Positions 6,030-50,079 of a stretch of 64,000 nt of DNA are shown here, in pieces. Source of the stretch: Vicugna vicugna (taxonomy: Eukaryota); NCBI GenBank assembly GCA_013265495.1, contig MU057560.1, forward strand, positions 1,562,753-1,626,752. Direction: 5' to 3'. Both the position numbers and the translations under genes were made by a program. Each line of letters opens with the position of its first letter. Position 1 is the first letter of the stretch. The notes under the pieces were generated by a model that was given only the letters and a program-made list of their open reading frames with translations, did no database searches and was not told where the DNA came from.

Positions 6030-6265
6030 GCCTGCCGCAGGAGGGCCGGGCCATCAGGCAAGTCTGCGCTCAGAACCCATCGCGCCGCGTACCAGGGCAG
6101 GACTTTTAGCGAGCTGTCCAACTTCCTGACGCCACGCCCTCATCTGCAGAGCAAGTGCTCGGGATCATGACGACCCCGGGGGTTCCTGCGCATCGGGGAG
6201 ACCCCGCGCAGGCAGAGCTGGGCTACAGGCTGGCCCCCCGGAGCCCCTCCGGGCGGCGGCGCCCC
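6030..6265 (+). mobile_element. MIR SINE, heavily GC-shifted
   Basis: Colinear MIR landmarks: tcaggcaagtctgcgctcagaaccc (box B region), gccctcatctgcagagc (core cctcatctgtaaaatg), gggctacaggctggccccccgg (tail cacagtgcctggcacatag). Confidence 0.6.
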
Positions 6266-6630
6266 TCCGCGCGCTCTCTCCCGAGGCCAGCGCCCCGCGC
6301 CCGCGGCTGGCGGACGGACGGGGCGTGCAGCCAGGGCCCTCCCTGCCCCTGCCCCCCTCCAGGAGGCTCTCCGCGCGGCCGGGCGGCGCAGTCAGAGGGC
6401 AGTGGCCCTGGGGCTCCACGGCCCTTCGCCCACGCAGCTCTGCCACCACGGGTGGAAGGAGCAAAGCGGGCCACGGCCACCAGCGCCCACCTGCAGCGCC
6501 CGCGACCTGCCCCCAGGCCCGCGCGGAGCCGGGACCAGGCGCAGCGCGGCCTCCGCGAGCGGCGAGTGGAGCGAAGCCTTCAGCAAACGCCGCAGGAGCT
6601 CACCAGTTCAGTTTCGCGCAGCTACGCCGA
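6150..6630. other. CpG/GC peak 1 (CpG-island-like)
   Basis: Abrupt very GC-rich, CpG-dense block; AT-richer sequence resumes by ~6650. Confidence 0.85.
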
Positions 6631-8093
6631 CACTGAGCTCCATTCTGTTTTCTTTACGAATGGGGCAAAGCCCCTCCAGAGGTAGTAAATCAAGTTCAGT
6701 CATTTAGTTACCAAGTCCTTCCCCATGAAACTCCAAGTCAGCGGTTGAAACGACCAGCCTCTTCAAAATAATTAACAGCAGACATCCGGATTCACTAGTT
6801 ACTGAGCCGTTCACAGCCTCAGAAGCCTTCTGTGGGTAACCGAGCCCGCGTTCAAAAAGGAAAGGAGTGTTTTTCAGTTTCTTTTAAACAGAAGCTTATC
6901 GTCCATGAACATGAAACACAAATGTCCAACAAAAATTTACTTTTTTTATTTCACCAAGTTAATGTCAACACATGTTATTAATTTTTGCTACCAAGCCAGT
7001 CTTAGTGGGGAGTCTGGAAGCGCGGCCAACCGGAGTTTAACGAGCTGCTGGCTGTTCAACGGCGCACGTACCACAGGGAGGCCAGATGGACCATTCGGTT
7101 GCACCCTCCGCATGCTTTTCTGGAACGTGGAGAGGCTCCCCCCCATCGCTGGCACACCTCTCGATGTCCGTAAAGTCTTCTCTTTCTAAGTCCTCGCAAT
7201 GCGTCTTCATGATTCTCCAAGACCAGCGTCAGCGCTGCTCACAGTCTGGGAACATGAGCCCCCGGCAGCTGAAGCTCCTGCACCACGCCTTCCGTTTTCT
7301 TTCAAAGAACAACAGTATCAGTAACACTCTTGTTTTAGCTCCTGTAGGAGCTGGGAAGCCAGTCCACTGTCCAGTGAGAACATTTCCATGAGGTGGGGCA
7401 GCCAGGCTTGCTTTATTTTTATCTGAAGTGCTAAATCCGTTTCAATCTGTAAACTCTGTAGACACCTGGCTTCTCGATGAGATCGCCTTAGAATTGTAAT
7501 GGCTTCTTAACCATTCTCCTTTTAAAATGCAGGAAATATACACCTCTCTGGGCAAAGGCACACCTCCTTTAAATAACGGAACGGCTACAGGATCCCAGTT
7601 TCTCATGATGGTGATTTTTTAAATAAATAAATGAGTGAGTGAACAAAGTGGCCTTTGACAACTGGCAAGTGCACATGGCATTGATTTCATTCAACAAGCA
7701 GTAACGTGCAGAGCTCGCACCACGTGTGTGGGGATTCAGTGTCTCCGATGGTCACGCAAAAGGGACAAGCAGTGAGTCTCAGGCCACGACCTCCAGTCTC
7801 TAAGAACAACCGTCCAGAGAGAGGAGGCCGTGTGCGAGGGTGAGAGTAGCAGGTGGTACGTCGCGTGTCCTGCAAACCTTCGGTTTCGTGGGCGCGCTTC
7901 CCGGCGCCACCAGAGCATCTGCATTCCTTTATCTTTATACTGACACTTTGCTCAAAAGCTGCATGTTCTCTTTCTTTTTGCTTCCACCGAGCTTCTTAAA
8001 GGGAGGCTTCCTGTCTTATTCATCTATACATCTACATCTTTGGAACTTCAGCAAAGTGGCTGGTTCAAAGTGTGTGGTTTTACATACTTACAA

Positions 8094-8146
<53 letters not shown>

Positions 8147-8167
8147 CAGATGAGAGAGAGAGAGAGA
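8094..8167 (+). repeat. Compound microsatellite (ATAG)~13 followed by (GA)~8
   Basis: Directly visible tandem repeats. Confidence 0.97.
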
Positions 8168-9100: not shown

Positions 9101-11227
9101 GGCCAAGATTCCAGAAACTCGTGTTGCTAGACATCTACGTAACTTTTTATCCTTCAGAAGTTTTAGGAAAAATAAACAGAAAGGAAAATTCACTCTGGCA
9201 ATTTCAGTTCAACCGAATTCATGTCAAACACCAATCACTGGAGAAGCAAATAAAGCAAACTGAATGAGGGGGCTGTATTGTTTTACCCTTTCCAACATTT
9301 TACATGAAGTTTTAATCTCTCAAGTGAATGCTTCCTTTGAAAATATTTTTAAGTGAAGTTTTAACTGTATTATTAAACTTCATTTCTTAAAAACTCCTAT
9401 TATGCATACCTACATCACGTCTATACCCAGTAGCCAATAGGTCTCCAAATTGTGAGAAATGTGAATTCCAAAAATATTTCTGTCTGGTTGGAAATTTTCT
9501 TTAGGTCTACAAGTCTAAACCAACAAAATTGAGGGCGGAGCACGCTCTTTTCCTGTACGAGCCAGTTACCTTGCAAAGAAAGAAACCACATTCCTTGACC
9601 TTAGAATTCACCCGGGCTCTAGCCAATCCTATCGCAAACGTGTTTCCTTAGTCATTTTTAAAAATAAAAAAAAATGCAAATGATTGCGTATGATTTAGTT
9701 AATCCACTGTCACAGTGAAGACACAGCTTGAAAGTATGTTCTCTATATAGCTATTCATTTGGTGGAATAGATTGAAATAGGTTAAAAATATGATTTTATA
9801 CTATAAATAATTTAAATATAATGCTTACAGACATGTTACCAAAACCATACAAAATCAGAGAGAGAGAACTGTTATGCGGAGAACAATGGCTCCTGTTAAT
9901 GTGGTGTGATCTCCTGAATCCTATTATTGAGACTAAAAATCTTTTAAAGCAATTTTTACTGCTGTGATGCACTGGAAATGAAATATCAAAGTCTGGCTTC
10001 ATCTTCCTACCAAAACAATGCTATTTGTATGTTTAACATTACTGAACATAAGTGCTATTAATGAAAAGAAGTATTGTTAACAACGAAGTGTTGTTAACTT
10101 TGGCCTTGAGTGCATTTTTTTATTTGAAAACTATTTGGGGGAAAAAATAAAAATGTATGGTCTGCATTACGTTCCTGTGGCTGGGATTTGGCAACTTAAC
10201 ATCGCTTTGCTTTAACTTCCTGAAGTAAACCCGCCGTGGCTCTCAAATAAGGGAGCGTGGCCATGTCTCCGCCTCCACTGTCTCAACAGCTGAATCTTGG
10301 GTTTTGTTTGTTTGCTTGTTTGTTTTTAAGTAACAAGCTGAATTAAGCATTAGAACAGACATCTATTCCAAAATTCTAAGTGAACTAATTAAACTCTGAA
10401 GAGGAAAGGTACTCTCTTGGTCTGACAAGCATGGGTGAGGGCTTGTCAATAGCACAAAGGGCTCCATTATTTCTGCTTCAAAGTAAATAGCCAAAAAAAA
10501 AGAAAAAGCCACAGAGATGAATGATGAGCTAAGTGCTAGACACCAGGTAGGCACAAAGTGCAAAAAGCAGCACTGTGTTGTTTTACAGAAGAATGTGGCT
10601 CATATTAACCATTCATTTCCTCAATGCAACATATGCTTTGGAGGTTCCTGGGCAACACATTGCTGAAGAGAACAAGTAAATAATTACTGCTTTGGTAAAA
10701 TATAAAGTTGAACTATAAAAGAATCACATTCGTAATTGCAGTGTGGTGTAGACTGAGTTTGGATCCCTGTTCAACCACAGACTATCCCAGAAAATTTGTC
10801 TAAGTTTGTTTCATATATGCAGTCCGATCTTCACATTGTAAATCTGATACGTGTATACATACATAGGAATATTGGAATGCATATATTGAATAAATAGATA
10901 TTAAATGTATATAATATATATGAGAGAACAGACAATAGTACATCTATACAAATATGTGAAAATAAAATCTACACATGAAATATATATTTCTGTATTACAC
11001 ATACATATCAATCCAGACACAGGACGCAGAATGGTCGCACCATCACTCGGGTGGCGCCACAAACACATCCTGCCTATAGGGTGCCTGACGTAGGGGCTGG
11101 TACATGGGAGATAATCACATAATGGAGGTAAAATATTTTAATCCAAGAAGCATTCAGTTTCCATTTCTTTCCAATTTTAATGCATCCAGTGCTTTCTAAA
11201 GAGGGAAGAAAGGACTAGTTCATCTTT

Positions 11228-11454
11228 TTTTTAACATTTTTATTGAGTTATATGCATTTTACAACGTTGTGTCAAATTCCAGTGTAAAGCACAGTTTTTC
11301 AGTTATACATGAACATATATATATTCATTGTCACATTTTTTCCTCTGTGAGCTACCATAGGATCTTGTATATATTTCCCTGTGCTATGCAGTACAATCTT
11401 GTTTATCTGTTCTGCATTTTGAAATCCCAGTCTGTCCCTTCCCGCCCCCTGCCC
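11228..11454 (-). mobile_element. Young camelid-type L1 3'UTR fragment with 17-bp TSD
   Basis: Poly-T start; near-identical to the L1 3'UTRs at 20650-21013 and 24073-24400; TSD aggactagttc(a/t)tcttt at 11211-11227 and 11455-11471. Confidence 0.93.
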
Positions 11455-12889
11455 AGGACTAGTTCTTCTTTGCTATGCTGTCTCTCTCTCTCTCTGAAAA
11501 GGAAGAATGACACAATGAAATCACCTTTTGTTTTTCTGACATGATTCTCTGCACACACTCATAGCACAAAGATGTGTACAAACTAACCAACCCTCAGTTA
11601 GGATCTTGCAGTTCAACGCGTAATCGTGTGATTTTTTTAGATCTGGGCAGGGTAGGATAAAATCGCTGTGGCTCCCAGAACTTGAGCAGTCGCCCCACCT
11701 GGTGTCGTAAGTCGCTGAGGAGACACCAGCACCGTGCCCGCAGTCCATGCGCCGTCCCTGGCCTCCTGGGCTGTCTGCACTGTGGACATGAGGGGCACAG
11801 CACAGAAGACAGGGTGTACTCTCCTTCTTCTGCACGAGGAGCCTTCCCATTTTGTAGGTGAGACACTGCAGCCAGGACGGAGGAGCGACCTGACAGGCTA
11901 ACCTGGAGAGCGAGGACAGAGCTCCTGTCCGTGCCGGCCCCACCCCCACAGCATCACTTGTCCCCTGTCTCTTCTGCTCTGTCAAGTACTGGTTGCTATA
12001 AAAATGGGCAGGGAAGGAGCCTTGAGGAAGCCCCACTCAGGTGTCTGTCTGGAGCTGGATTCTAGTCCAGGGACGTGGGCTCTGCCTGGAAAGGACAGAA
12101 GAGCAGAGGCTGGCCACAGAGAGGAGAGGGCCAGAGACGCGCAGCACACCGGGGGCCGGATGACGGGCGCAAACTTGTCTTCAGCGCATCTCGTACAAAG
12201 CAGGCAGCTAAGCCGTACTCCTTGCCCTCCCCACTGCGGGATCCTTCCTAGAAGGCGTCCCTAGTCCACTAAACGACAGCGCCCGCCTATCTCTAGAATT
12301 CCATGCTGGATTAGCATTGACAAGCAAAAAAAAAAAAATCCATCCTCTGCTTCTCCGTGCGAAATTTAAATTGGCGGGGCAGAGACGCTGCCCCTTCTTT
12401 AATGGGTCATGAGAGAATTAGAGAGCTTTCATGAAGCAGCTGGGATTCAGGCTGAGGTTCAAAGATTTCCAGCAGCATATTTTGGTGATTAGGAAAAGCA
12501 AGCGCTTAATTTCTGACTGGCTTTCTCTGCTATGCCTGACACTTCCGCCTGGCTTCCAAGTATTTAATCCCTTCTTCTTTCCCTCCCAAGTAAAAACATT
12601 CACACGTTTCCTTTATAATGTGGTATGTTAAGAGGATATGGATTTTCATGTCTTCGGCTTCTGTAGGCTTCTGAATATATTTTGTCAGTACGGAAACTCT
12701 CCCCGGCGGGACCTGGGGATAAGGGCCACTGCTGCAAGCGCCTTGGAAAATGGAAGCGCTGGGGCAGTCGGCCCGAACCGTATTTGCTGCAGGAAGTGCG
12801 GGGCTTTCTGGGAGGAAAGAGATAAAGAAGGCTCTGCGATAATAGAATAAAGAGGATTTTTTCTTCTCCTTCTGTGTGTTTTTCCTAAG

Positions 12890-14600: not shown

Positions 14601-14614
14601 ATTTTAAGAGCCAT

Positions 14615-14927
14615 ACTTACAAAACAGAAACAGACTCACAAAGAAACGTATTGTTACCAAGGGGGAAGGGGGTGGGAACGGATAAATTGGGAGTTTGAGA
14701 TTTGCAGATAGTAACTACTGTATATAAAAGAGATCAGCAAGTTCATACTGCACAGCACAGGGAACTATATCCAATATTTTGTAGTAACTTATGGTGAAAA
14801 AGACTATGAAAATGAACATGTGCATGTTCATGTATGACTGAAGTGCTGTGCTGTACACCAGCAATTGACACAGCATTGTAAACTGACTCTACTTCATTAA
14901 AAAATAAATAAATATATATACCAAAAA
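14615..14927 (+). mobile_element. L1 3'UTR fragment (artiodactyl/camelid subfamily)
   Basis: acaaaacagaaacagactcac...gggagtttgagatttgcagata...gcacagggaactatatccaatat...A tail; flanking aagagc(c/a)ata direct repeat. Confidence 0.9.
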
Positions 14928-15699
14928 AAGAGCAATATTACTACCAACAAGAAACTCACTGCATGAAGCTACGTATTTCTTCCCCTCCTCCTCTCTTCCT
15001 CCTTCTCCTCCTCTTCTCCAGAATACTCCCCTAGAGTGTACAATCCAGGCACAGTGTCAAAATTTACTCAATACACTATGTTCTTTGCATGATGATACAC
15101 ATATTTGCGATTTTAGGGGTTTTTTTCTTTTTGATTGAATTTTTCTAACATACACAAAATGTTTACATTTTCCTTATCCTGGGTCCCTGGAGAAGCCATC
15201 CATAGAGAGACAGAGGGACTTGAAACTTAGACCACTGTGCTGTCCCACCTGGACCCTGGAAAGGCGCCCGGGCCTCAGGGAAGAACTGGACAGGCCGCTC
15301 CGGGAGACCTGCAAGACGGCACGTCCTCTGTTTAATGTCCCTGCATCACCCTCTGCTGGTGCAGCTTCGTATTGTGACAGCAGGCAGAGGACACGCGGAC
15401 ACGTGTGCAGGGCCCAGCTCCGTTCTCACGGAGGAGGGGCTGACGGCTAACGTAGGCCACGAGAGACAGTGAATGAACAACCAGCTGACCCACAGCTCTC
15501 CCCACAGCCCTGCTCTGGTGGCCACCTCTTCCCCCGTCGCCCAGTAGGGGAAACACAGTCCCGCGTCCAGGTTCTTCGCAGAAATCTTGCCAGTCCTGGG
15601 AACGCAGCACCTTCGGTTGCTCTGTGACCTCAGTTCTCTGAAGGGTGCAAAAAGCTGCTGGGATTTTGTAGGCGACCTGGCTCGGCCTCACCACGTGCT

Positions 15700-16275
15700 T
15701 GGCAGTGGCGTTCTTCCGCGCTTCCCCACCTGCAGCGGAAGCAGGCGCGAGTGCCCGTGGCTCAAGAGCTGGGTGACGCAGAGCGTTTACAGCACAGGGG
15801 ACGTGGGCACGGTCGTGCCCTGGTGGGAATACACGTTTGTGGAGCCATTCTGACAAGAAACCTTGCAATACTTGGTCAAGTTACAAGTAAGCACAGCCTG
15901 ATACGGAGCAGAACTTTTCATGGGTCTATGCGCAACTGAATTCTCAAGCAGATCCAAAACGGGCTTTTTCAAAGATGTCCATCACACTGTTGTTTGTGGT
16001 GGTGAAGAACCAGGGCCAGTCTTGCATCTGAACTGGCGGGGGTCGGGGGGTACGTGGTGGGGGTGCCCCATGGCACCCTCCGCAGCAGCTCAGGAGAGCA
16101 GGTCAGATGTACTTAGTAACGTGACACTTACATAAATTAAAAATAATGCAGATAAACCAACAATGCAGGCTTTGCAAAAATAGGTATGAACAAAAGGATA
16201 TGTATTAACACATTAGAAAGATTGCCTGTGGGAGCAGAGGAAATGGAATCGGGGAATGAGAAATACGCAGAAATA
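15700..16275 (+). mobile_element. Ancient L1ME-like fragment (5' part CpG-enriched)
   Basis: ctggtgggaatacacgtttgtggagccattctgacaagaaaccttgcaatac; aagatgtccatcacactgttgtttgtggtgg. Confidence 0.6.
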
Positions 16276-16277
16276 AA

Positions 16278-16520
16278 TAATAATAACTAACAGAAATGAT
16301 AGTCAGCAATTACTAGGTGCTGGATATAGCGCTCTGCACAAATTAACTTTTTAAATCCTCACTACAGCCCTAAGAGATCGCAATTATTACTACCTTCATC
16401 TCACAAACGAGAACACTGATGCGGAGAGAAGTGGGATAAATAGCCCCAGAGCGCACAGACCGCAAGGCCGCACGTAAAGCAGACAGATCAGTGCGAGGAA
16501 GAGCCATGGGGTTCTTCAGT
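16278..16520 (-). mobile_element. MIR SINE
   Basis: ttttaaatcctcactacagccctaagagatcgcaattattactaccttcatctcacaaacgagaacactga. Confidence 0.7.
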
Positions 16521-17903: not shown

Positions 17904-18071
17904 CTTCTGTGCAGCACAGGGAACTACACTCAATACCTTGCAACAACCTATAATGAAAAAGAATATAAAAAGGAATATGCATATATATGTACCACTAACT
18001 CACTATGCTGCACACCAGACACTAACACAACATTGTGAATCAATAAGACTTCAATAAAAAAATTAAAAATT
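17904..18071 (+). mobile_element. Short L1 3' end with TSD
   Basis: gcacagggaactacactcaatacc...acttcaataaaaaa; TSD aaaaa(c/g)agc(t/c)tctc at 17890-17903 and 18072-18085. Confidence 0.88.
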
Positions 18072-19034: not shown

Positions 19035-19809
19035 TCTCATTTTGTAAATATTTTCATTGAAGTACAGTTGACTTACAATTTTGTGTTAGTTTCTGGTGTA
19101 CAGCAAAGTGATTCAGCCACATGTGCACATATATACACATTCTTTTTCATTATGGGCTATTAAGGGTATTGAATATTGTTCCTTGTGCTGTACAGTAGGA
19201 CCCTGTTGTTTATCTGTTTTATATACAGTAATGTGTGTCTGCTAATCCCAAACTCTTAATTTATCTTTTCTCCACCCCTTTTCCCTTTGGTAACCATAAG
19301 TTTCTTTACTGTATCTGTGAGTCAGGTTCTGTTTTGTAAGTAAGTTCATTTGTACCATATCTTAGATTCCACGTATGAGTGATGTCATATGATATTTGTC
19401 TTTCTCTTTCTGACTTACTTAGTATGATCATCTTTAGATCCATACATGTTCCTGCAAATGACATTATTTTATCATTTTTTATGGCCGAATAGTATTCCTT
19501 TGTATAAATATACCACAACTTCTTTATCCAGTCATCTGTCGGTGGACATTTAGGTTGCTTCCATGTCTTGCCTATTGTAAATAGTGCTGCTAGGAACATT
19601 GGGGTGCAGGTGTCTTTTCAACTTAGAGTTTTTTTCTAGATATATGCCCAGGAGTGGGATTGCTAGATCATACAGCAAGTCTATGTTCAGTTTTTTAAGG
19701 AACCTCCAAGCTGTTCTCCACAGTGGCTGCACCAGTTTACATTCCCACCAGCAGTGTGGGAGGGCTCCCTTTTCTCCATCCGTCTCCAGCACTTGTTATT
19801 TGTAGAAAG
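19035..19809 (-). mobile_element. 5'-truncated L1 (ORF2 C-terminus plus 3'UTR) with TSD
   Basis: Peptide [35 protein letters not shown] tctattcatt(t/c)tg at 19022-19034 and 19810-19822. Confidence 0.95.
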
Positions 19810-19999
19810 TCTATTCATTCTGATTGATCCTGGGTGATTCTGATTCCTGCCTGGACCCTGATGTATACAACCACTCAAATCCAATGCTTGTGATCATGTT
19901 CATTTGTGTATTTATTCATTGATCCATGGGTCAAATCATGAACATATTTACCCAATGACCAAGCTACTTCTGTTTTATATAGAAAATAACTGATGCCTG

Positions 20000-21013
20000 A
20001 TCTGCATTTCTCTGATAATCAGTGATACTGAGCATTTTTTCATGTGCCTATTGATCATCTGTATTTCTTCCTTGAAGAATTGCTCACTTAGGTCTTCTGT
20101 CCATTTTTGGATTAGGTTTTTTTTTTCTTATTAAGTCATATGAGCTGCTTATGTACTCTGGAGATCAAAACTACAATGAGGTGTCACCTCACACTAGTTA
20201 GAATGGCCATCATTCAAAAGTCCACAAACGAAAAATGCTGAAGAGGCTGTGGAGAAAGGGGAGCCCTCCTACACTGCTGGTGGGAATGCAGTTTGGTGCA
20301 CCCACTGTGGAAAACAGTATGGAGATTCCTCAAAAGACTAGGAATAGACTTATCATATGACCCAGGAATCCCGCTCCTGGGCATATATCCAGAAGCAACC
20401 CTTCTTCAAAATGACACCTGCACCCCAATGTTCATAGCAGCACTATTTACAATAGCCAAGACATGGAAACAGCCTAGATGTCCATTGGCACATGACTGGA
20501 TAAAGAAGAGGTGGTATATTGATACAACGGAATACTATTTAGCCATAAAAACCAACAATATGACGCCATTTGCAGCAACATAGATGTCCCTGGAGAATGT
20601 CATTCTAAGTGAAGTAAGCCAGAAAGAGAAAGAAAAATACCATATGAGATCGCTCATATGTGGAATCTAAAAAAACAAAACAAAACATAAATACAAAACA
20701 GAAACAGACTCATAGACATAGAATACAAACTTGTGGTTGCCAAGAGGGCGGCGGGTGGGAAGGGACAGACTGGGGTTTCAAAAAATAGAACAGATAAACA
20801 AGATTGTACTGTGCAGCATAGGGAAATATATACAGGATCTTGTGGTGGCTCACAGCAAAAAAGAATGTGACAATGAAAATATGTATGTTCATGTATAACT
20901 GAAAAATTGTGCTTTACACAGGAATTTGACACAACATTGTAAAATTACTATAACTCAATTTAAAATGTTAAAAAATGTGTATATATATAACAAGATAAAA
21001 AACAAAACAAAAA
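20000..21013 (+). mobile_element. Young L1 with 5' inversion (20000-20167 antisense, 20162-21013 sense)
   Basis: Perfect 19-bp TSD agaaaataactgatgcctg at 19981-19999 and 21014-21032; ORF2 peptide [20 protein letters not shown]. Confidence 0.96.
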
Positions 21014-25178: not shown

Positions 25179-25269
25179 TGAAAATCCTTATCTTGATGAC
25201 ACTGAGTTTTATCACTTTTCTATGTAAAGTTCTCGCACGGCTTTTGGTAAATATATTCCTGCCGATTTC

Positions 25270-32859: not shown

Positions 32860-34050
32860 AAAGGAAGGACAGTGTGGCTGAAGAGGGAGGACTGAGACAA
32901 CGTCAGAGGAAGAGGGGGGCCATTTAGGATGTCACTGGCCACCAGAAGGACTTCGGATTTCATTTTACTCTTAGCACCGTATGAAGCCATTGGAAAAGCT
33001 TAAGTAAAAATTGAATATGATTTACTTGTTTAAAGAGTCCCTCCCACTACAGGGGTGAGCATGAATGCAGTAGGAGTATCCTGGAAGCAGATAAGGACGA
33101 AATCCACTTGAAAGTTGCAAAAGAGGCAGAATATATGGAAGGATGTGGTATGTATTTGAAAGAAAAGAAGAACTTAGTGATGGATCAGATGTAAACGGGG
33201 AGGAACAAGAGAAAAAATTTCAATGTGCCAAGAAAAAAAACCCACAATAACTGGCAAAGGAATTCGGATTTTTTCCCCTTGAGTTGGGACTGGATGCCTC
33301 CTGCTCTGAGACACATGGAGAGGAGTGGACACTAGAAAAGGACCAGAACCCTGAATGCAAGGAGAGACAAAGGGAACGGGGTTAGGTACGCGACCAGCAG
33401 GATCTGCTATGAAGTGTTTAAGAAATACGAGCTCCTATTATTCTTCAAGCTGCTATGCTGCTTTGGTAGCCCTGAAAAATCGAGAATTTAACAAAATTCT
33501 CTTTAAACTCCCATTGGAATTCCTATTCTTCAGAATAACAATTTTCATTTGGTGTCAGTCCATGGAAGAGAGGAATGCTCACATTCTCTTACAGAAGAGT
33601 CCTGAGTCTGATGCTGCGTTGTCATGTGTCCTCTGTCAGATCATCTACTGTCTCATTGGTAAAATGTATGGGTTCAATAGGCTCTAATTTTCTTCTAATT
33701 ATAACATATAACTAGAATATATTCTAATATCTTTCTACTTAAAAATATTCTGTGATTAAATGTCTGTTGAGTTAATGGAGTCAGTTAAAATGCATGATGC
33801 CAAGAATTTTGGACTGAGCAATGAGATGAATGGATGATGGTACAATTTACTGACAGGAAAGGCTGAGAGATGGACATGTACAGGGTGGGAACATAGAAGG
33901 CTCTGACCTGGATACTGTTTGAGGTTCCCAGTGGGCATCCCTAGGGGATTCCAAGTAGAGGTGGAGGGTGGACAATTACACAGGAGGATCTGGAGCTCAG
34001 GGAGATCTAGGTTAAAAATGCACATTTTAGAATTTTCAGCTTGTAGATAA
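32860..34050 (-). mobile_element. L2 fragments (32860-33250 and 33770-34050)
   Basis: cagtgtggctgaagagggag; aaggacttcggatttcattttac...gaagccattgga; gatgccaagaattttggactgagcaa; ggatctggagctcagggagatctagg. Confidence 0.65.
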
Positions 34051-35750: not shown

Positions 35751-36431
35751 GCTGCCGGTGATGCTCCCTTTACTTCCACATTTATTTCACGTCTGGGCAG
35801 CATGTGAGCCGTTCCTCTTTCAACACGGAAGATGATGGGAAACAATGGGATCCGTTGAAGGAACAAGGGAGAAAACTAGGTGTCAACAGACAAGGCCAAG
35901 GTGGGGAGAGCTTTTCCCCTACTTGGGGTCTTCAGGAGGTCCTTCCCTTCCTCGGGGTGCTGGCACCACAGCCCCCGGGCCGCCTCGCGGCTCTGCAGTG
36001 TGGCCGGGGCCCTCACTTTCTGCTTCTCGGGAGACAAGCCAGATGGCCAAGAACATAGTGACTTCCACCAGCGTGTGGCAAAAAAACTTCAAAGACTTTC
36101 TCCCGGATACAAGACAGGTGACTCTAAACTGAAGGGAGACCCGGGGCGCCGGCACTGCCCCGTGGCCGGGGACTGTTACTCAGTGTTACAGAAACTGTGC
36201 GCGTGTGCGCGCTGTGTCCTGGCCGTGACCACAGCGCTCACTGACATGGGTGACGAAACGCTGGAGCCCCGAGGCCCGTGGGGCACAGAGCGCCCTCCAC
36301 GAAGCCCGCAGCCTCTGCACAATGAGCGGAGACGGCGCCGGTGCTGCGGGACACCCCCCCCACCACCACCACCACCGCACGCTTGTTGAGCATATTTCCG
36401 AAGAGCAGCATGGATTCAAAAGTTTACCTAC

Positions 36432-36558
36432 GGGGGGATGGGTATAGCTCGGAGGTAGAGGGTGTGCTAAGGAGGCACTAGGTCCTGGGTTCGATCCCCA
36501 GCACCCCCATTAACATAAATGAATAAATACATAATAACCTAATTACCTCTTCCCCCAA
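36432..36558 (+). mobile_element. Camelid tRNA-derived SINE (Vic-1 type) with 12-bp TSD
   Basis: gggtatagctc...gtagag...ggtcctgggttcgatccccagcacc...aacctaattacctc; TSD aaaagtttacct at 36418-36429 and 36559-36570. Confidence 0.9.
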
Positions 36559-36994
36559 AAAAGTTTACCTGTTAAGAAAAATAACTGGCCCACATTAGGC
36601 TGGGTTTGGCTTCCTACTTCATGAATTAAGTGACAAACAAGTTAGTGACAGATACAGAGTTTTGGACAACATGATTTGACTGCAGACCACTGTAACCCTA
36701 GAGAGGACTCAGAAAACAGGTCATTTTCCTACGAGCCTGTTCACTTGCACCCCAGCCAGCTAGTGCGTAAAGCACGGTGTGCAGACTCACAAAGGACTTA
36801 CGGGCATCGGAAAAACCTTTCAGAAAGAATGGGGCCAGTTATAAAGTATAATGCAAAGGCTGACGTACTCCAGAGGCTAAAAAGGTGTGAAAACAATGAA
36901 TTAGTTACGAAAGATGAGGACAAAAATTCCAGAGCACCCCCACCTCGGCCCATCGTTTTCCTTCAGGAAGTGGATGTATGAGCTAACTGAGCTT

Positions 36995-37170
36995 CAGCCA
37001 TACCTGAACATACATGTATCCGTTTTCATATTCTTTTCACCATAAGACCATAAGTTACTACAAGATATTGATTGAATAGAGTTCCCTGTACTGTACGTAT
37101 GAACTTGTTGTTTCTCTATTTTGTATATAGTAGTTAGTATCTGCAGATCTCAACCTCCCAATTTATCCCT
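36995..37170 (-). mobile_element. L1 3'UTR fragment
   Basis: agttccctgtactgtac...gtatctgcagatctcaacctcccaatttatccct, antisense of the element at 14615. Confidence 0.85.
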
Positions 37171-37339: not shown

Positions 37340-37508
37340 CATTATTGTTGGCTTAGTTTTGTTTATTTATTTTTTATCCAAGTATAGTCGGTTTACAATG
37401 TTGTGTTAATTTCTGGTATACAGCATAGTGACTCAGTTTTATTTATATATATATATATGTATATACGCATATATATACATACATATGTATATACATATTC
37501 CTTTTCAT
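37340..37508 (-). mobile_element. L1 extreme 3' end with (TA)-rich expansion
   Basis: aagtatagtcggtttacaatgttgtgttaatttctggtatacagcatagtgactcagtt followed by a TA/CA tract. Confidence 0.85.
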
Positions 37509-39359
37509 ATTAAAATTAATTTAAATGAAATACTCTACAGGAAAGTCAGATTGGGGGGAAAATCAACTATGTTTAAAAAGTGGGCAAATGCAAAGGGACA
37601 TACTATGTGAATGTGACTGGTTTATGAAGCAGAAGCAGCAATATTATTGAAAAGCAAAGTAAGTTTTCGGGTAAAGCAGTAAATGATTAAAACAGAATCA
37701 TTTAAATGATGAAAGGTAAATTTAAAAAGAAACTCCTATGAACATTTATATTCTGTTCAATTTTATTTAGAAATACTTAAAGCAAAGTTCCTTTTTGGGG
37801 GGAAGCTCAAGGGCATGCCAGTGGAAGCTCAGCAGCAGTACCAGATACTGCCAAGCGCTTTCCATCCCGGAAAAATCAAAACGACAAAACAAATGGGATT
37901 TTAATCATTATAAAGATTGTTCACATTTGTGTATATTTGTATCTGAAGCCTAAAAGCAAAGAACACAATTTCCTTTCAAGCTGAGTGGAATACAGGAATG
38001 ATACTTTAAGAAGGAGTGTTTAAAATCTCATTCAGTTCATCTAGAACGAATCACCAGGACTTAGCTGCTATTCTATGGCCAGCAGGTTCAAAGGGCAGTG
38101 AGCAAACAGCCTCTCACATGGTAACAGTCCCATCATTAAAAATGTCTCTATTCTTTTTCATGAAGAAATTTTCCCTTTGTTTCTTCCTTTCCCAGATGAC
38201 AGCTGTTTGGAATTAGAAGGCTCACAAATCCTTTATGCAAAAGAATTTCAAGGTGCTTTCTACCCTGCCCACTGCCAAGGGCCCATGTAGGGGCCCAGCT
38301 GTGAATAAAGCGAGATTTGACTGTTGAACCTTTACTCCCCCTGGTCTCTCACAGTTGATTGAATAAGTATTTATTCTGCACTGACTGTGTACCAGGCCCT
38401 AGATTTGCCAGGGCATATCGGCGCGAGTAATAAAGATTTCATATCAATTAAGTTATCATGGAAATTTTGAAAAAGTTATGAAGAAAAAGAACCGAATGCC
38501 AACAGGGACCATCTGATCTTCAAAAACCACAGGCACCAGAGTGAAGCTGAGCAGCAGAGCATCCGAGATAGGGAATTTCCACGCCATCCTACCAAAGGGT
38601 TAGCCAGCGTCTAGGAGACGAGTTTCCCCCGTGTTCACCACTGAAATACCAAGGCCTGCTTTTCCAGACTGAGGTGAGGAACAAATGCAGCCACATGAGC
38701 TACCACCTGGCACATAGTGTTCGCTCTCTAAATGTTCGTAAGTTGATGGTGGACAAACACGCTCCCAGGCTTGGAAGCCAGACAGATGGGGTTCAGAACT
38801 TGCTTTATGATGATTTTACTTCTTTGTCTCTATTCTGTAAAATGGGGATAAAAATATTAATTTGAGCCATGTGAAACGAGACGTTTGACTGCTGTTTGAG
38901 TTACAACAAAACTGCACACAGTTCCACTGTCACCACCCGCGAGGAGCTAAGAGCAGTTGACGACAAAACCTGTGAAGACACAGCCTGGATTCTGGCACAG
39001 AGCCCGTGCCGAACGTTGACAGGTGTCCCTTCTTTTATATCCAAACATGTGAATTGTTTACATAAAAAATGGACATTCAGAAATCTGTGCTCTTTTTCCT
39101 TGCTCTCAAGCGCCGAGAGGCAGTCTGGAGGAAGCAGGACTCAGACTCGGAGTGAGCGTGAGTCGGGGAGGCTGGCTGAGCCCCAGGCGTGAGCCCAGCC
39201 GTCCGGTGCGTCCAGGATGCCCTGGCATCTCAGAAAGTCAGCTAAGGATTTGTCTCACGTCTGCCCTGGGAGGCAGGTCTGACTCAGGAAAACAGACAGA
39301 TGAGCTCTGGATTCTAGCAGTGTGTGGCTGACCTCCACCTTCAGCTCTGGGGCGGGAAG

Positions 39360-39790
39360 GGAATGTGTGAGCGCGCGGGTTCCCTCGGCTCTGGTCTCGC
39401 TAAGCGGGCGCCAGCCCGGATGCGGGGCCTCGCCCACCAACACCGGGGCTGCGTGCAGCCGCGCTGCCCGGGGGCTCGGGTGGGCACGTCAGACCGCCTG
39501 GCGGCCCGTGGTTGACGGCAGGTGGAAGGCGGGCCTGCCGAAGTCTGAGCACGAGTGGACGCTGAGACAGAGCTACACTTGCCGGAACGCGGCAGGAAGC
39601 GCAGGGGCGCGCACCATCGGCGCGCTGGGCGCCAGCCGCCCCGCCTCGGCGCCGGCGCCCGGGAGCAGCGCATGCGGACGGCCAGGGCGCGACCGCGGCC
39701 GTGAACCGGCCCGGCCCCGTTCCCACGAGGCCTGGGGACGTGCATCGGTCCGGGGTGTCCCCAGTATCTGCCTCCTCCACGTCCGCCTGA
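39360..39790. promoter_or_regulatory. CpG/GC peak 4, possible promoter
   Basis: CpG-dense; NRF1-like gcgcatgcg at 39668-39676; nearby GC box 40055-40062. Confidence 0.5.
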
Positions 39791-41919
39791 GATCACCTTG
39801 CAGGATCTTCTTTGGAATTTTGTTTTATATACAAGACAGAGCAATGCAGACGTCAGTTCGGTGTTGCCGATTGCACCTACAGCTGTTTTCTTACAACAGC
39901 CCACGGAGAGCTTACACCCACCTGGAAATTTGCACGTCCGAGCTGCTCGTTTCCCAGAACGCACACACGCCGCGCTGCTGCAGCCCACCCCTTACCTGCA
40001 TTTTACAAGCCAGCCTGGCGGCCCCTCGGAGCCCAGTGAGCAGCTGGGACAGGCCCCCGCCCAGCACCGGCCTGATGTTTCATCTTCCTCGTAGGAACAT
40101 TAAACACCGGACCGGTTTTTTAAATTCCCATTTCATTTCACACAACTCCGAGATTTCCTCCATTTGGGGAAATGATCCGTCTCCTCTTTCAGAACTGAGA
40201 CTCTGTGAGTTTGCTCCATCCTGCAGTCTAATAACCAAGGAAAAGGGGGAAAGAGGTTCTGAGTGTCGAGGACGAACCTCAAAGCATGTTTCCAAAAAGT
40301 CAGAAGACTGTTAATATAGTGCCTGAAGCATAGCGCTTTTAACTGTCTTTACCCTGGAAAAATTGGAAATTCCAAATATTCTCTCACAAGAAGGCTTTTA
40401 ACTTGTTCTTCTGCTATGTGCTACAGAAGTCGTTAAAAGAAGTCTGGAAAAAATTTTTATCATATAAGAAAAAATTCATTAGGCAAAGATAAGTGAACAT
40501 GATGGATTAAGACATTTATAAGTTTGATTCCTGAAAGGTTAAATAAATGCACACATAAACAGAAGAAGAAAATTCCATTTTCTAACAAATTACTAACAGT
40601 GGGTTTCAAGTGGTTTTTATTCTCTGCGCTACAATCTTTCTATATTTCTACATGTGTTGAGTACTATTTATAATGAAGAAAAATATTGTAAGGCAAAAAA
40701 ATACAGTCCTATTTGTAATACCCGATTTTAAATTCAAAAGTGCCTTTAGGAAACATTTCATATAAATACATACGCTTTCCAAAATAGTTTTAGTGGTTTC
40801 TAAGGAAAGATATAAGAATAATATAACACCATCAGTGTTAACTGGTAGGAAATCAGTGGGTGAAGAACAGCACATGCCTTGAAAGTGGAAGTTGAACATT
40901 TTTTTAGTTTTTCACTCTGCACCATAATCATTTCTTCACATTTTTCGCACAGTAATTAAGGCCCAAGGGCAAGGCATTTCTTAGCAGCTAGTGACTATCA
41001 GGGTTAACTGCCGGGGTGAGACTTTCCTTCGTTGCTTAATTATATTAAATCAATTTAGTTTCCATTTTTCGCATAGCAGAAGTGCCTTTTAGTGAACCAG
41101 TTTAACACGATTCTGAACACTTGCTTGTAAAATGAATGACTATATACTCTATTCTATTAGCATCTTTTATAACATCAGAGATAATCATATGTCAAAAATA
41201 CTAGGTTATAAAGAAAGCAGCAAATATTTTAAGACATATTTAAATGAGAATTAATACTTACTGATAAAATACTAGTTAATAGGAGAAAAAAGCCACCATA
41301 TAGAAAGACTGAAAGGAAAAAGAAAAAAATCAAACCTAATGTGACCTGAGGTGCAAGGCAGAGAAAAGGGTCACAGTGGAGTTTGCCTCACGAAATAGAT
41401 GCCTTGTTCTTGCACAGAAGCATCAAGTTGGGAGGCAGAAAGAGGGACACAACCACGTTTTCCTTTGTATGATTACACTGCCAATTACAACAGCAGGAGA
41501 GAGGGAAGTCTGGTGTGACATTTAATTTTAATATCATCTTTCACTCACTTGCAGTGTGACCACACCAAAGCAGCTGGAATCTTTTAGTCCCCATTTCCCC
41601 CAGGTAACCACCTGTGCTTGTATGAACTCCATCCAGGATGGCAGAAAGGATCATCTCACATAACTCTTGCCCCGGCCAGAGCCCCTGCGAGCACTGGGGC
41701 AAGAAGAGCCAAGAAACTGAAGCATGGTCTCCATGGGGCAGCACCGTTCTGATTAAGAGGCACTCAGCCTCAGGTGTGCAAAGGAAGAGTGCGACCAGGG
41801 AGCCACCCAGTGTCCAACTCCAGATGATTCTTTCTAAGTCCCTGAAAGCACTGTGTACTTTACCCACTTTTTATGATGTGCTGAATGATCAGCTCCACGC
41901 AGTAAAGTTTAAAAGCCTG

Positions 41920-44250
41920 AAGTAGGCAACTTGGTGAGATTTTCCGAACGTACATACCTGTCTAACAAGACCTGAGGACAAGGTGTAGACTTTTACAGCA
42001 TCCCAGAAGCCTCTTTCCAGCCAAAATCCCATCCCCAAAATAATACTCTTCTGAACTTTACCACCACTTATTCATTTTGCTTGTTTTTTAATTTCACAGG
42101 AATGAAATCATATCCCATATCTTTTTTAATGTCTGAGTTCTCTCCTTAAAATGTATTACTGTGAAATTCATTACGTTGTTGTATATAGTAGAAATTTACT
42201 CTTTTCACTTTATAAATACATACTGTATTTACTTACACACTCTGACGGTGATGGACGCTTGGCTGTGTTCAGGGTGGTCTGTTATAAATAGAGCAGCTGC
42301 AAACACTCTCCTGCACTGCTGTCTTGGCGCCCACATGCAGGCGTCGCGGGTAGGGACACACCAAGCTGAGGTGCTAACCTACGTGGGAAGCATATGTTCA
42401 ACTTAGCAGATACCTACAGAGTGTTTTCTGAAATGGTTGTACCGATTGGGTCTACCTTCGGCAATGCATAAATATTCCAGCCGTTCCAGGTCCTCACCAA
42501 CACTCGAGACTGTCAGGTGTCCTGTCCCTTTGTGGTTTTCTTTTTGCCTCTTTTGTTTTTTAGTTTGGTCTTTATTTTCAATTTATTCATCTGGTGGATG
42601 GGTGGGTGTGTTAATATCTCACAGTTCTATTTTGCTTTCCTTTGACGATTAAAGCTGTAACTAGCATTTCAGATGCGTTTTGTCCAAATAAACATGCCTT
42701 TGCCGGTTCGAGTCTTTAGCCTCATTGTTCGTGGGGTGACTATCGCTCCATGATGGTATTAGATGTTCTTGAAATTTGGATAAAGCTTTTGATGAGGAAT
42801 TTTATTTCAAATAACTTCTACTGTCTGGTTTTTCTTCTCCTTCTTCTCATGTAATCTTTTGATGAAAAAAAATGGGCTTAATTTTAATAAAATCCAATAT
42901 TTGACCACTAATCTTATTAGTGTTTTTTGTGTTCTATTTTAAATAGCTTACCTATTCCAATATCATGAAAATATTTTTTGTCTCTTAGCAGCTTGACTGT
43001 CCTGCCTTTTAAATATAAATACACTTACTGTATTTTTGTTCCATATGGCTTTTTGAATCTGCAGAATGATGCACTTTTTTCAGCATATGTAAACTCTCAT
43101 GTAATATTTTTTCAGTTACTGCTTCTTCCCCATTTCTCTGTCTCCTCCCTTTCTTGAACCTGAATTACATATAAATTACACCCTTTCACTGCATTTTATA
43201 TCCGTTTCTTTTCCTTTGTATTCTTCAACCTGGACACTTCTTCTGGCCAATGTTCCTGATCACCATCACACAGTTTTCATGTCTAGAATTTCCATTTGAC
43301 TCTCTGTCATAGATTCGAGCTCCTTGGTGACACTTTTCATTTTTTTCTTTTTAATATATCGTATTATTTTACAGTCTTTTTCTAAAGAACCCTTGGCCCT
43401 GCTCCTACTTGTTTTAGTGATTTCTTTGTCTGTCTCTTTGTTTTCAATTATTTGGTCTTGTCTTTTTGTAGGTCTGGTAATTAATTTTATGCATTTAAAA
43501 TACTATATATAAAAATGATCTAAGCACTGAGTGATGTTTTTTCTAGAGGAAACTTAATTTCCTTTGCAGGCAAATGACTGCAGATTCCATTGATGCAGTT
43601 GGGGCTCAAATTTAGGGTTTGCTGTGGCTGGCTTTTTCCTTCGGCACTCGTATTCCTGCACTATAGCTCTCTCCAGGGAATATAGGTCCTCGACATTTCA
43701 GTGCATGCCCTGGAGTGTCCACCTAAGCTCCCCCCGTTGTGACACACCTTGAACTCCAAGCTTCCTCCTCAGCAGGGAGAGACCGCGGCTGTTTCTGTTC
43801 ATCTCTTGCCCCCACATGCTGCTCTCAGTGTGGCTGTTTTTTAAGGGAGTTTGACTGCACGGAGCTGGATTTGCAGTCATCAGAGCTCCTAGATCAGACT
43901 GGGCTTCACTCCTCTGTGTTTCTCTATCCTTGACCTCAACCTTCCATCCACTGGACAAGCCCAAAATAAAACTTCTTTCTCCCCAGCTGAGCAAGACTGT
44001 TGTCAGGTCCTGGATGACGGTTTTAGTTGGGTTTCTGTTCCATGTAAGAAAAATTGTCTAAGGTCCTCAGGGTGGGAAAAAAAAGCAATAGAAAGTGAGG
44101 GTGATTTTATAGGATTTTTATTTCTCTCTGAAACTTGATCCCTTGTGTCCAGTCTTTCTTCTCTGTATGTCAGTGTTTTAAATGGTGACTCTGTTGTATC
44201 TAGATCAGACAGGAAGGTTAGATGGACACACGCTACTGTGAAATGGCCAG
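41920..44250 (-). mobile_element. Ancient L1M fragments (L1MB/ME-like 3' region and upstream pieces)
   Basis: ggaatgaaatcatatcccatatcttttttaatgtctgag; gatggacgcttggctgtgttcagg...gctgcaaacactct; ttttctgaaatggttgtacc; cctcaccaacactcg. Confidence 0.7.
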
Positions 44251-45714: not shown

Positions 45715-45850
45715 AGGTGTCCAGACTCCAGTGATGGAATTCTGAATTCCACAGTTTTGAAATAGGACCAGAAATGTGCCATTTTTCAGAAACATCTCAG
45801 TATTTTGACATTCACGGTTTGTGGATCGTGCTCTGAAACACACAGGTCCG
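45715..45850. mobile_element. MER5-like hAT-Charlie fragment
   Basis: aattctgaattccacagttttgaaataggaccagaaatgtgccatttttcagaaacatctc. Confidence 0.45.
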
Positions 45851-46868: not shown

Positions 46869-47809
46869 GGAAGCCCGGTATCTTCTGCGCTTTGTGGGGT
46901 TAGAGATTTCTTAGGAAGTGTGCTCTGGAATCCAATGGGGACCCGGGTTCCAGGACCTTAATTACCTGGTTTTATTCTATGGCAGGCGCTCTCTTGTGTG
47001 TGAGAGCTTTGCTGCAGAGAACGGCGCTCAAAGAAATTCTCCCTCTTTGTCTACTAGGTCGTCTGCTAAGCCGCATCAGGCCTGTGACAGGATGAAGCCT
47101 GGCGTCTATTTTTAAGAGAGAAGGTCTTCCCTGGATGGGAGCAGCTGAGACACGCCTGCGGCACCCGCCTCTTATTAACGCATCAGGAAGGGATCCCGGC
47201 GTGGAAGCTGGCAGTGACGCGCGAGCGCGGGGAGGTTTGCTGAGCGAGTCTCACTGTCCACCAACTTCTGCTTCGGGGCAGAGTTAGAAGTTCGTGCCGC
47301 CATTTCAGCCCGCTTGCTTTAGAGGGGGGAGTATGAAGAAGACAGCTCCGACGTGATGTTCTGGAACCACTCAGGTTTGAATGAAATGAACGGAAGCTTG
47401 TTGGCAGAAGCCCTCACGTCTGGCGGACAGCTAGGGCTGAGCTCTGCTTTTTGAGGTGGGTGTGTGAGCATTTAGCTTGGACTGAGGCGCCACAATACAC
47501 GTCATCTCCCTGGGATGTCCGCGCAAACGCAGTCTGTACAAATCCCTGACCAAAGGTTCCCAGGCCCTTGGTCCGCTAGAAGAGTCAGCTGCGGAATCTG
47601 CTCCTGTTCATTCTCGAGCACAGTCTAAAACGCCTCACTCTAACCCAGCCTGGGGCGTGCTGGTCTGGAGGCGCCTGGCACACGGACAGCACGGTTGCGA
47701 CGGCCGCTGGCGGTAAGTCTTCAGTCCGGGGCGAGGTCCGCCCTGGAGAGCAAACGTAGGCACGCACATTCAGCGTCAGAGGGTGTTTCCAGAAGTGGGG
47801 CTGAGAAAA

Positions 47810-48360
47810 TGAGGACAGAGCGGTAAGCGCTGAGCCTCGTGTCCTCCTTGAGGACAGAAGAAGAGAAGGGACCGAGCGGGAGCAGCTGCTCGACACGTGG
47901 CAGAAGCTGCCAGTGAGGAGCCTGGGGAACCTGGCGCCGACGGTGTCCAGGGAACCAAGGAGGAGGCCCGGGGACGAGGCCGCGGTCGGCCGCCCAGTGC
48001 TGCCGCCCAGACCAGGGCGGGAGAGGGCCGCGTGGGTGTCGCCACGGAGCGGCCACGTCGCTCTCCCCGCGGGTCTCGCTGGAAAGGAGAGCAGGGAAGG
48101 GGGCCGGGGCCGAAGGGGCTGCAGCGAGGGCCTCGTCTCGTTAGTTACGGCTGAGACTGTGTTCTTAAGCCGGGAGAAGTTACAGCCGTGTTTGTCGTGA
48201 TGGGAGCCACCCAGGAAAGAGGGGAGGAAAGAGGAAAAGCGGCAGCACGAACGGGACAGTCGGCTGCTGGAGGCTGTCCTGAGCAGGCTGGCGGGGCAGG
48301 CGCGGTGCCGGGAGGGGCGCAGGGCGCGAGGAGGCGGGGCGGGGACCGCGCGCAACAGCG
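47810..48360 (-). mobile_element. L2 fossil, heavily GC-shifted, inside peak 5
   Basis: gccagtgaggagcctggggaacctggcgccgacggtgtccagggaaccaagg and ttaagccgggagaagttacagccgtgtttgtcgtgatggg are colinear with L2 antisense landmarks. Confidence 0.7.
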
Positions 48361-49060
48361 GCCTTGCGCTCAAACGCGGAGCCTCCAGGACAGCCGCTGA
48401 CGCGCAAAGCGGGCCGCCGGGGACGGAGAGGAAGCGCGCCTCGTAGCGCCTCCTCGTTTGCCCGCATGACGAGGTAGCACAGAGCGGCCGCTCCCCGTGG
48501 ACTTCGGCCTCCGCCCCGTGGCAGCCCGCGCCCCGGACGAGGCCCCCGGCGGGGGCACAGTCGGCGGTGTCGCCTGACCCGCAGCCGCGGCTTCGCGGGC
48601 GCGGGGACGCGGCTCCGGTGCCGGCCCGGGGCCAGGAGCGCTGGCGCGCCTTCGACGCTCGTCTGAGGAAGCGGCTGTATTTCAAATGCTACATGCGTAT
48701 AAATGAAGCGCTCCGGCCCGTCCGAAGTCAGCCCTGGCACCGCCGCAGTTAAAGAAAACCACCGGGAATCGGGTATCAGCCGGGGAGCAGGCCGGCTGAC
48801 CGTTTCCCCAGCGTGCTTCGGACTGCACGGGGCAAGCGGGGAAGGTACCTCAGGGGCACGGCGGTTTGGGGGGCTTCCCCCGGCCAGGGGTGCAGCGGTT
48901 GTGGAGTCAGTGCCACGTCCCGAGGGGGAGGATGTCCCAAAGGCACGGCCAGGCCACCTGTCATCGCTGGCTGCTGGGTCCCAGCGCCCACAGCGTCCCT
49001 GGAGAGGCGCCCGTCATGTCCCGAGGAGCCCGGGGCTAGTGGCTGCGGGCAGCGCTCCGC

Positions 49061-49084
49061 TAACCCTAACCCTAACCCTGACCC
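49061..49084 (-). repeat. Short interstitial telomeric repeat (TTAGGG)3 plus TCAGGG variant
   Basis: + strand taaccctaaccctaaccctgaccc. Confidence 0.9.
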
Positions 49085-50079
49085 ACGTGTGAGCGCGGCC
49101 AGGCGGGAGGAGGCACCAGGGCCGCATGCTGTCAGGGAGGGAGTTAGGAGAGGCTCCCAGCGGGAGTTAGCACCACCAAACTCGGAATGCAGCCGGCGGA
49201 TGAGAGGAGGCACGGTGCCCAAGGGACCGATGGCCAGTTGTGACAACGACAGATGCCTGTGCTGGGACCCGGCCACACCCGGTGCCAGGCACCCCCGGCT
49301 TTGGGATCAATGGGCTGGACAGGCCTTCGGGCTGCACCGCTCACCCTCCAGGTGCACAGGGCCACCTGGGAACCAGTCCCAGTGCAGGTCTGAGCCCCAA
49401 GACTCATTTTCCACAAAGCACCGCACGCTCATCTTCCAACTCGCTCAGCAGAGACAAACTCAAGTGAAAATGTGGGCGTTTCTGGTCACTCCAGACTTAG
49501 CCATCTTTCTCTCGGTGACAGCACGGTGCTCTCCATCAGAGAAGTTTCCGTCCCAGTCGTGTTCAGGTTTCAGTCGAGACCCTGTCTTCCTCAGATGCGA
49601 GTGGGCGTGCGGTTTAGGAACGGGTCAGAAATTAATAAATTTACATACGTGTGTAATAGAAGACTAACACAGTCCGATGGAGTGTTAGCACACCACGCCT
49701 GGCGGTGTTCCTGCGCGACAGCGCTGAACACAAACAGTCGCCGAGATCACAATGGTTTATGGGCCAGATCTATCAAAGCTTTTAAAAACAGATTACTCTT
49801 CATATAAAATGCTGCATAGTATTAAAAAGAACAGAAACTTACCTTCAACTCACTTACTACATTAACACAATCCTTATATCAAAACTGGACAAGGGAAAAC
49901 TGCATGTGTGAATGTGGACATCATTTTTCCTACCTAGTGTGTGTGTCTCGCTGTGTAAATGTGTAACTGTGTAGCTGTGTATGATGACGCAGGCAACCTC
50001 ACTTCCCAACACTGAAGTAAAATGGAAACTAGCACAGTGCACGGCAGCATTTTAAAAGAATGAGGAGAGTCTCAACCAA

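Follow-up and report, generated by a model that had tools for sequence, protein, structure and literature searches.

The stretch of DNA analysed here, hereafter the window, comprises 64,000 nt of the genome of Vicugna vicugna (contig MU057560.1, positions 1562753-1626752, in an assembly of 2.03 Gb and 12,405 contigs) and contains five conspicuous CpG islands. We have found that these islands are part of a domain that spans 264 kb or more and in which CpG is also raised between the islands, and that dead transposons in this domain carry an excess of weak-to-strong (W>S; A or T to G or C) substitutions and of newly created CpGs. The explanation towards which we lean is that the domain has long been under a regime that enriches GC and CpG, that GC-biased gene conversion (gBGC) accompanying persistently high recombination would be the likeliest cause of this regime, and that the islands would be its focal points. 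In this model, persistently high recombination in the domain would lead to gBGC, the islands would act as hotspots independent of PRDM9, of the type formed by hypomethylated CpG islands, the bias would be strongest at and beside them, and the inter-island DNA, dead L1 and MIR copies included, would be driven towards G, C and CpG. We infer recombination and gene conversion as the cause of the bias, and in the same way the islands may be, or may formerly have been, unmethylated in the germ line.

CpG islands in the window and in the surrounding domain

An earlier note, made from the letters of the window, had described five sharply bounded, CpG-dense peaks in a gene-poor region and had proposed that they were written over dead transposons at recombination hotspots. 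The peaks themselves are real, and their coordinates agree with those obtained in 200-bp windows (GC >= 0.5, observed-to-expected CpG ratio [o/e] >= 0.6) and in a finer CpG profile of the window made in 100-bp steps (Table 1). Under a stricter call of the Takai-Jones type (length >= 500 bp, GC >= 0.55, CpG o/e >= 0.65), all five are genuine CpG islands by sequence definition, and a small sixth peak at 36.1-36.5 kb is recovered by the looser 200-bp criterion only. CpG density amounts to 8-20 per 100 bp in the peaks, versus 37-156 per 10 kb in five loci taken at random from this genome. The sharpness of the boundaries holds for part of the edges. In the 100-bp profile, both edges of peak 3 are abrupt, with CpG per 100 bp going from 0 to 10 at 27100 and from 14 to 1 at 27500, and so is the right edge of island 2, at 23500, but the left edge of peak 2 and the edges of peak 5 are gradual. 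Island 5, the largest, has a GC skew of +0.12, positive on the + strand. The o/e of 0.8-1.0 in the island cores may fit non-methylation in the germ line, yet strong gBGC could also yield such values.

To speak of a series of five orphan islands is to understate the phenomenon. When the window is extended by 100 kb on either side, the resulting 264-kb domain contains 28 islands (23.9 kb) by the Takai-Jones-type scan, six of them within the window, corresponding to about one island per 9 kb, whereas none was found in 50 kb of control DNA consisting of five arbitrary 10-kb loci on other contigs of the same genome (domain and controls together, 314 kb). The domain has a GC content of 0.467 and a CpG o/e of 0.53, versus o/e values of 0.37, 0.12, 0.17, 0.19 and 0.23 in the five random loci; the whole window has a GC content of 0.441, 1,614 CpGs and an o/e of 0.52. 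The enrichment extends beyond the islands: after removal of all 28, the o/e of the domain is still 0.48, and 23 of the 24 island-free 10-kb bins lie above the highest random locus (0.37).

Weak-to-strong substitutions on dead transposons

The data support the view that a GC-enriching, CpG-creating bias acts on the dead transposons of the domain. The earlier note had seen a W>S bias in transposon remnants within the peaks, which was not confirmed, as no repeat homology was detected there; a bias of this direction is present regionally, on L1 and MIR copies outside the islands, from which the counts given here come. The L1 set consisted of 37 copies from the domain, 38 from elsewhere and 4 from the random loci (79 rows, 763 aligned columns), and differences were scored at non-CpG sites against the majority of the 38 outside copies. 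Substitutions present in at most 2 of the 79 rows were considered private, which removes subfamily-diagnostic sites. The 37 domain copies had 317 private W>S and 145 private strong-to-weak (S>W) substitutions, giving an equilibrium GC content (GC*) of 0.539 (bootstrap confidence interval [CI] 0.485-0.613), versus 210 and 177, and a GC* of 0.412 (CI 0.367-0.453), for the 38 copies from elsewhere together with the 4 from random loci (Fisher odds ratio [OR] 1.84, p = 2e-5). When all differences were taken into account, GC* was 0.424 in the domain (1093 W>S, 794 S>W), 0.375 elsewhere (518 and 509) and 0.325 in the random loci (129 and 165). New CpGs had arisen at 8.2 per aligned kb of L1 in the domain, and at 2.65 and 2.3 per kb elsewhere and in the random loci, respectively.

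The L1 bias was also sorted by distance to the nearest island. The W>S/S>W counts were 57/16 at less than 1 kb (GC* 0.68; 8 copies), 78/43 at 1-3 kb (GC* 0.49) and 182/86 beyond 3 kb (GC* 0.52). In the case of MIR, the 12 copies of the domain gave 270/171 (GC* 0.478), compared with 104/99 (GC* 0.376) for the 7 copies of the random loci (Fisher OR 1.50, p = 0.02). The W>S bias and the CpG gain on L1 and MIR copies together fit gBGC acting across the region.

Such a region could in principle also have been produced by a bias in mutation or replication timing, or by germ-line hypomethylation over a broad domain, without any role for recombination. The CpG o/e that is raised over at least 264 kb, AT-rich stretches included, is what such a process would leave behind. 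However, hypomethylation alone does not predict an excess of W>S substitutions at non-CpG sites, and CpG sites present in the L1 consensus have been lost to a similar extent in the domain (49 of 87) and in the random loci (10 of 16), so that the L1 copies do not look shielded from the loss of CpG. We consider an explanation of this kind very improbable.

Repeats in and around the islands

The proposal that the islands overlie repeats was not confirmed: pairwise searches, 23 families built de novo, one profile for MIR and two for L1 detected no repeat of any kind in the five peaks. The MIR profile was built de novo by iterating nhmmer from a weak pair, and presumably represents MIR, judging by its core. 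Of the 19 copies that it identified over the 314 kb, 12 are located in the domain, including 3 in the window, and 7 in the random loci. None of the three window copies lies within an island. The earlier note had seen MIR landmarks inside peaks, but even at E <= 10 the profile, run with filters off, matched none of the six peak regions; at this level, 1 of 20 shuffled controls gave a match. Likewise, the two L1 profiles had no match in the five peaks, and the 23 further families, obtained by an all-against-all nhmmer comparison of the 314 kb, gave noise only (best E 0.065-0.82). As to the L2 and L1ME landmarks, the L1 3'-end profiles and the 23 families gave no match in the peaks, but these contain no L2 or old-L1 model. 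The sole real overlap with a family is a SINE-like, mid-age copy (family f3) at the right edge of the small sixth peak (Table 1).

The pairwise searches gave the same result. When 300-bp tiles of the window were compared by nhmmer with the 314 kb of own-genome DNA, there was no repeat match inside the five peaks, and a DNA search of the own genome with each of islands 1-5 returned the query only, i.e. each is present in single copy. It should be noted that a known MIR copy also returns itself alone in the latter search, which therefore excludes only young and mid-age repeats in the peaks. A six-frame Pfam scan was negative for all 36 frames of the peaks, but also for the 6 frames of an L1 positive control. 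Tandem arrays in the peaks, according to Tandem Repeats Finder, do not go beyond an 18-bp unit repeated 1.9 times.

Outside the peaks, all young and mid-age repeats of the window identified by the nhmmer family search belong to one L1 3'-end family, and a blastn self-comparison recovered this family alone. The matches of a 20-kb query in the own genome were likewise dominated by one young L1 family. We take the family to be L1 on account of an ORF2 C-terminal peptide pattern in its translation, and not by a library match. Pairwise-detectable repeats make up 12.5% of the window, which is low for mammalian DNA. The density of detectable MIR copies in the domain (12 in 264 kb) is about one third of that in the random loci (7 in 50 kb); this could reflect depletion, or faster erosion under the GC-enriching regime.

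These results bear on how the islands arose. In its full form, the hypothesis of the earlier note states that MIR, L2 and L1ME copies, still recognisable within the five islands, were turned into these islands by W>S conversion, de novo and on the camelid branch. That such a process acts on transposons here is shown by the W>S bias and the gain of CpG that L1 and MIR copies display across the region, most strongly near the islands. Nevertheless, neither the tiles, the MIR profile nor the two L1 profiles have a match in the peaks, none of the 23 families does better than E 0.065, and the L1 copies beside the islands retain a GC content of 0.34-0.50, which means that those copies were not overwritten. 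In this form, we regard the hypothesis as improbable. A variant, which is unlikely but to which we attach somewhat more weight, is a recombination "jungle" of several hundred kb specific to the camelid lineage, in which PRDM9 would be intact and stable PRDM9-independent hotspots would nonetheless have built islands de novo, at a density of about one per 9 kb, and in which the old repeats inside the islands would have been eroded beyond recognition.

Gene content and the possibility of ancestral islands

The description of the region as gene-poor is consistent with our scans, although it is weakly tested, as the short exons of a large gene would be missed. The 264 kb contain 154 stop-to-stop open reading frames (ORFs) of at least 130 aa, and none of the 149 that were scanned (139 as ORFs and 10 in-peak ones via the six-frame scan; the five spanning locus borders were left out) has a Pfam match at E <= 0.001. 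The only weaker match, to DUF2474 (E 0.0056), is under the cut-off of that family. The 61 ORFs of 100-129 aa in the window have no Pfam match either (208 flank ORFs of that size lay outside the scan). Long frames within the islands, one of 336 aa in island 4 and two of 367 and 304 aa in island 5, were considered as proteins and rejected: they have no Pfam match and read as non-coding GC-rich translation. Rfam families have no match in the window. A search of sequencing runs showed that 18 DNA runs from three closely related organisms contain 0.78-0.88 of the words of the window; there was no RNA run among the matches listed.

It is possible, though doubtful in our judgement, that the islands are ancestral and CpG-rich by virtue of germ-line non-methylation, gene conversion having played no part in their origin. 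They would then lie in a regulatory desert or within a gene of very large size, where they would serve as Polycomb targets, as alternative promoters or as promoters of transcripts that are non-coding or unannotated, and the W>S bias of the DNA around them would be a regional property in its own right; an origin of this kind is compatible with the model that we favour. It would agree with the o/e of 0.8-1.0 in the cores and with edges of island 3 that are sharper than 100 bp, with the resemblance of the sequence of island 3 to a TATA-less GC-box promoter, with the GC skew of +0.12 of island 5, and with the finding that no repeat remnants lie within the islands. On the other hand, one island per 9 kb over 264 kb without a Pfam-bearing ORF is far denser than promoters predict, and neither the inter-island o/e of 0.48 nor the CpG gain on transposons is explained by hypomethylation restricted to islands. 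A motif test on the 28 islands was mixed and was not used either way: GGGCGG occurs 73 times versus 38.7 in dinucleotide shuffles, a number reached by 0 of 200 shuffles, but relative to such shuffles there is no enrichment of NRF1, ETS, full CRE, YY1, E2F or ZNF143 motifs, and there is a depletion of CCAAT.

Orphan CpG islands are intergenic or intragenic islands with promoter-like chromatin, and are defined by methylation and chromatin data. The islands described here are similar to them in lacking an annotated gene and, in the case of island 3, in having promoter-like sequence. They differ from them in that one island per 9 kb and CpG-rich inter-island DNA exceed this concept, and in that the present islands are known by sequence only. 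Subtelomeric and pseudoautosomal domains of high recombination also show regional enrichment of GC and CpG with many non-promoter islands, which they share with the domain studied here. As regards differences, none of the five matches to telomere repeats in the assembly and none of the CD99-family matches are on the contig of the window, and tandem repeats in the window are few. There was also no match on this contig for the IA-2 family, nor for the homeobox (150 of 412 candidates scored).

PRDM9 and comparison with known systems

The earlier note had drawn an analogy with canids, which lack a functional PRDM9. This analogy does not apply, as PRDM9 has open SSXRD, PR/SET and zinc-finger exons in the present genome. 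The better of two genomic SSXRD matches (C4951:30966-31058, 66.6 bits) is in an open frame, pieces of PR/SET in open frames are found in the 10 kb downstream of it, and the last exon (L065:4132-5331, on C4951) encodes zf-C2H2_5 (the proximal finger) followed by at least 2 C2H2 fingers, and then runs into a stretch of Ns. After these Ns finger-like sequence resumes in another frame, and the number and frame of the fingers are unreadable across the array. None of 30 ORFs in the 5 kb upstream matches KRAB. The second SSXRD match (C9436:1645027-1645107, 51.9 bits) has an open frame of 54 aa and may represent an SSX-like gene or a PRDM9/7 paralogue. In the supplement of Baker et al. 2017, the KRAB-SSXRD-SET architecture with intact catalytic tyrosines is given for Camelus bactrianus, C. 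dromedarius and Vicugna pacos. Nothing in the exons found here points to a canid-like loss of PRDM9.

The mechanism itself, including the self-reinforcing loop between unmethylated islands and recombination, is already published for dog and other placentals. A study on dog reports that non-methylation attracts recombination, that CpG islands show a strong rise in substitution rate driven by gBGC, and that gBGC probably made many new CpG islands, mostly far from genes (Berglund et al. 2015, Genome Biol Evol, PMC4350167). The GC peaks of dog resemble the present case in being non-genic CpG islands within W>S-biased DNA; they differ from it in that dog has lost functional PRDM9, and in that recombination and methylation have been measured in dog, whereas we have sequence alone. 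A closer parallel in terms of PRDM9 is provided by a survey in which 39 of 52 placental species, many of them with intact PRDM9, are reported to show peaks of gBGC at PRDM9-independent hotspots that are hypomethylated (Joseph et al. 2024, PNAS, PMC11161765). Here too GC* is highest on transposon copies close to CpG-island-like loci, PRDM9 is kept and GC* is obtained from substitutions, but that survey used genome alignments and thousands of loci, and our estimates come from 37 L1 and 12 MIR copies of one domain. Camelid names do not occur in its main text or in four of its supplementary files, and there was no paper on camelid recombination or gBGC among the literature matches listed, which is weak evidence of absence. 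What would be new here is the camelid case and the unusual local density of islands.

Other features of the window and the domain

The positions of the islands and of the other features are listed in Table 1. A 715-bp segment of the window is 99% identical to C11790:3146861-3147575 on the opposite strand, with one more match, of 70%, on C8969; the two copies would seem to result from a very recent duplication or insertion, unrelated to the islands. A moderately GC-rich stretch contains a 36-bp unit repeated 2 times with 91% identity. In addition, a repeat family of about 380 bp (f0), which we take to be LTR-like (long terminal repeat), is present in the domain with 9 copies, versus 1 copy in the random loci. 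The eight domain members that were clustered first are unusually rich in GC and CpG (GC 0.52-0.63, 9-18 CpG each), and some adjoin islands.

Table 1. Features of the window (numbering from its first nucleotide) and copies of family f0 in the domain (coordinates of the fetched loci). Stricter and looser calls are defined in the text.
Feature	Positions	Strand	GC	CpG	o/e	Basis
Peak 1	5801-6700		0.68	82	0.80	200-bp windows
Peak 2	22201-23500		0.62	109	0.87	200-bp windows
Peak 3	27101-27600		0.70	53	0.88	200-bp windows
Peak 4	39301-40200		0.64	80	0.88	200-bp windows
Peak 5	47501-49200		0.68	168	0.86	200-bp windows
Small sixth peak	36101-36500		0.63	30	0.76	looser call
Island 1	5901-6700 (core 6001-6600)		0.69	79	0.82	stricter call
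Weaker island, absent from the earlier note	15301-15900		0.60	35	0.66	stricter call
Island 2	22251-23400 (lobes 22301-22700 and 23001-23300)		0.64	101	0.87	stricter call
Island 3	27051-27600 (400-bp core 27101-27500)		0.68	53	0.83	stricter call
Island 4	39301-40150 (core 39401-39800)		0.65	79	0.89	stricter call
Island 5, largest	47051-49250 (core 47601-49300)		0.65	197	0.85	stricter call
L1 3'-end copy	31-1646	+				nhmmer family search
L1 3'-end fragment	11227-11455					
L1 3'-end fragment	14611-14905					
L1 3'-end fragment	17905-18063					
L1 3'-end fragment	19042-19838					
L1 3'-end fragment	19996-20975					
L1 3'-end fragment	24052-25182					
L1 3'-end fragment	36993-37170					
L1 3'-end fragment	37370-37480					
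L1 3'-end fragment	42076-42506					
L1 3'-end fragment	53288-53445					
L1 3'-end fragment	62865-62990					
MIR copy	16256-16516	+				de novo profile
MIR copy	51288-51505	-				de novo profile
MIR copy	55315-55542	+				de novo profile
SINE-like copy (f3)	36412-36586					de novo family
Duplicated segment, 715 bp	33005-33719					
Tandem repeat, 36-bp unit	59809-59881					
f0 copy	L004:1499-1847					
f0 copy	L005:5516-5655					
f0 copy	L010:2886-3247					
f0 copy	L015:9232-9653					
f0 copy	L017:3061-3144					
f0 copy	L018:5787-5877					
f0 copy	L018:6409-6864					
f0 copy	L020:6237-6577					
f0 copy	L021:679-954					

Discussion

Several points weigh against the view that long-lasting gBGC has shaped the domain. 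Gene conversion is suggested here solely by substitution spectra, and an excess of W>S substitutions of a similar kind would be expected from a mutation bias of the region. The substitutions were counted exclusively on transposon copies outside the islands, so that they describe the surroundings of the islands. The excess on L1 copies close to islands concerns 8 copies and is not significant by itself (our rough Fisher test against the other domain copies gives p ~ 0.06), and the W>S fraction does not correlate significantly in rank with the GC content of the flanks (rho 0.15, p = 0.36). The composition of the controls must also be taken into account. The 38 outside L1 copies are the best matches to one copy of the window, and most domain copies are older; the unselected, age-matched L1 control consists of 4 copies (GC* 0.436, CI 0.30-0.53). 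In the case of MIR, the consensus was derived from the same 19 copies that were then scored, and the control comprises 7 copies. The similar decay of L1-consensus CpG sites in the domain and in the random loci, mentioned above, belongs to the same list. Finally, the very sharp edges of island 3 would fit a protected functional island better than the bell-shaped gradient left by conversion.

What the domain means depends on the age of its islands. If they are ancestral, the domain would be an ordinary recombination-rich, island-dense region, and the sole practical lesson would be one of annotation, namely that CpG islands defined by sequence are not to be taken as promoters in domains of this kind. 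If they are lineage-specific, the domain would be a compact, naturally occurring case in which gene conversion has given rise to CpG islands in a species that has kept PRDM9, and would extend the result obtained in dog and the survey of 52 species to a group that is not named in that survey. Should the recombination "jungle" prove true, camelids would be a second model beside canids, and a PRDM9-positive one, for the way in which gene conversion creates CpG islands.

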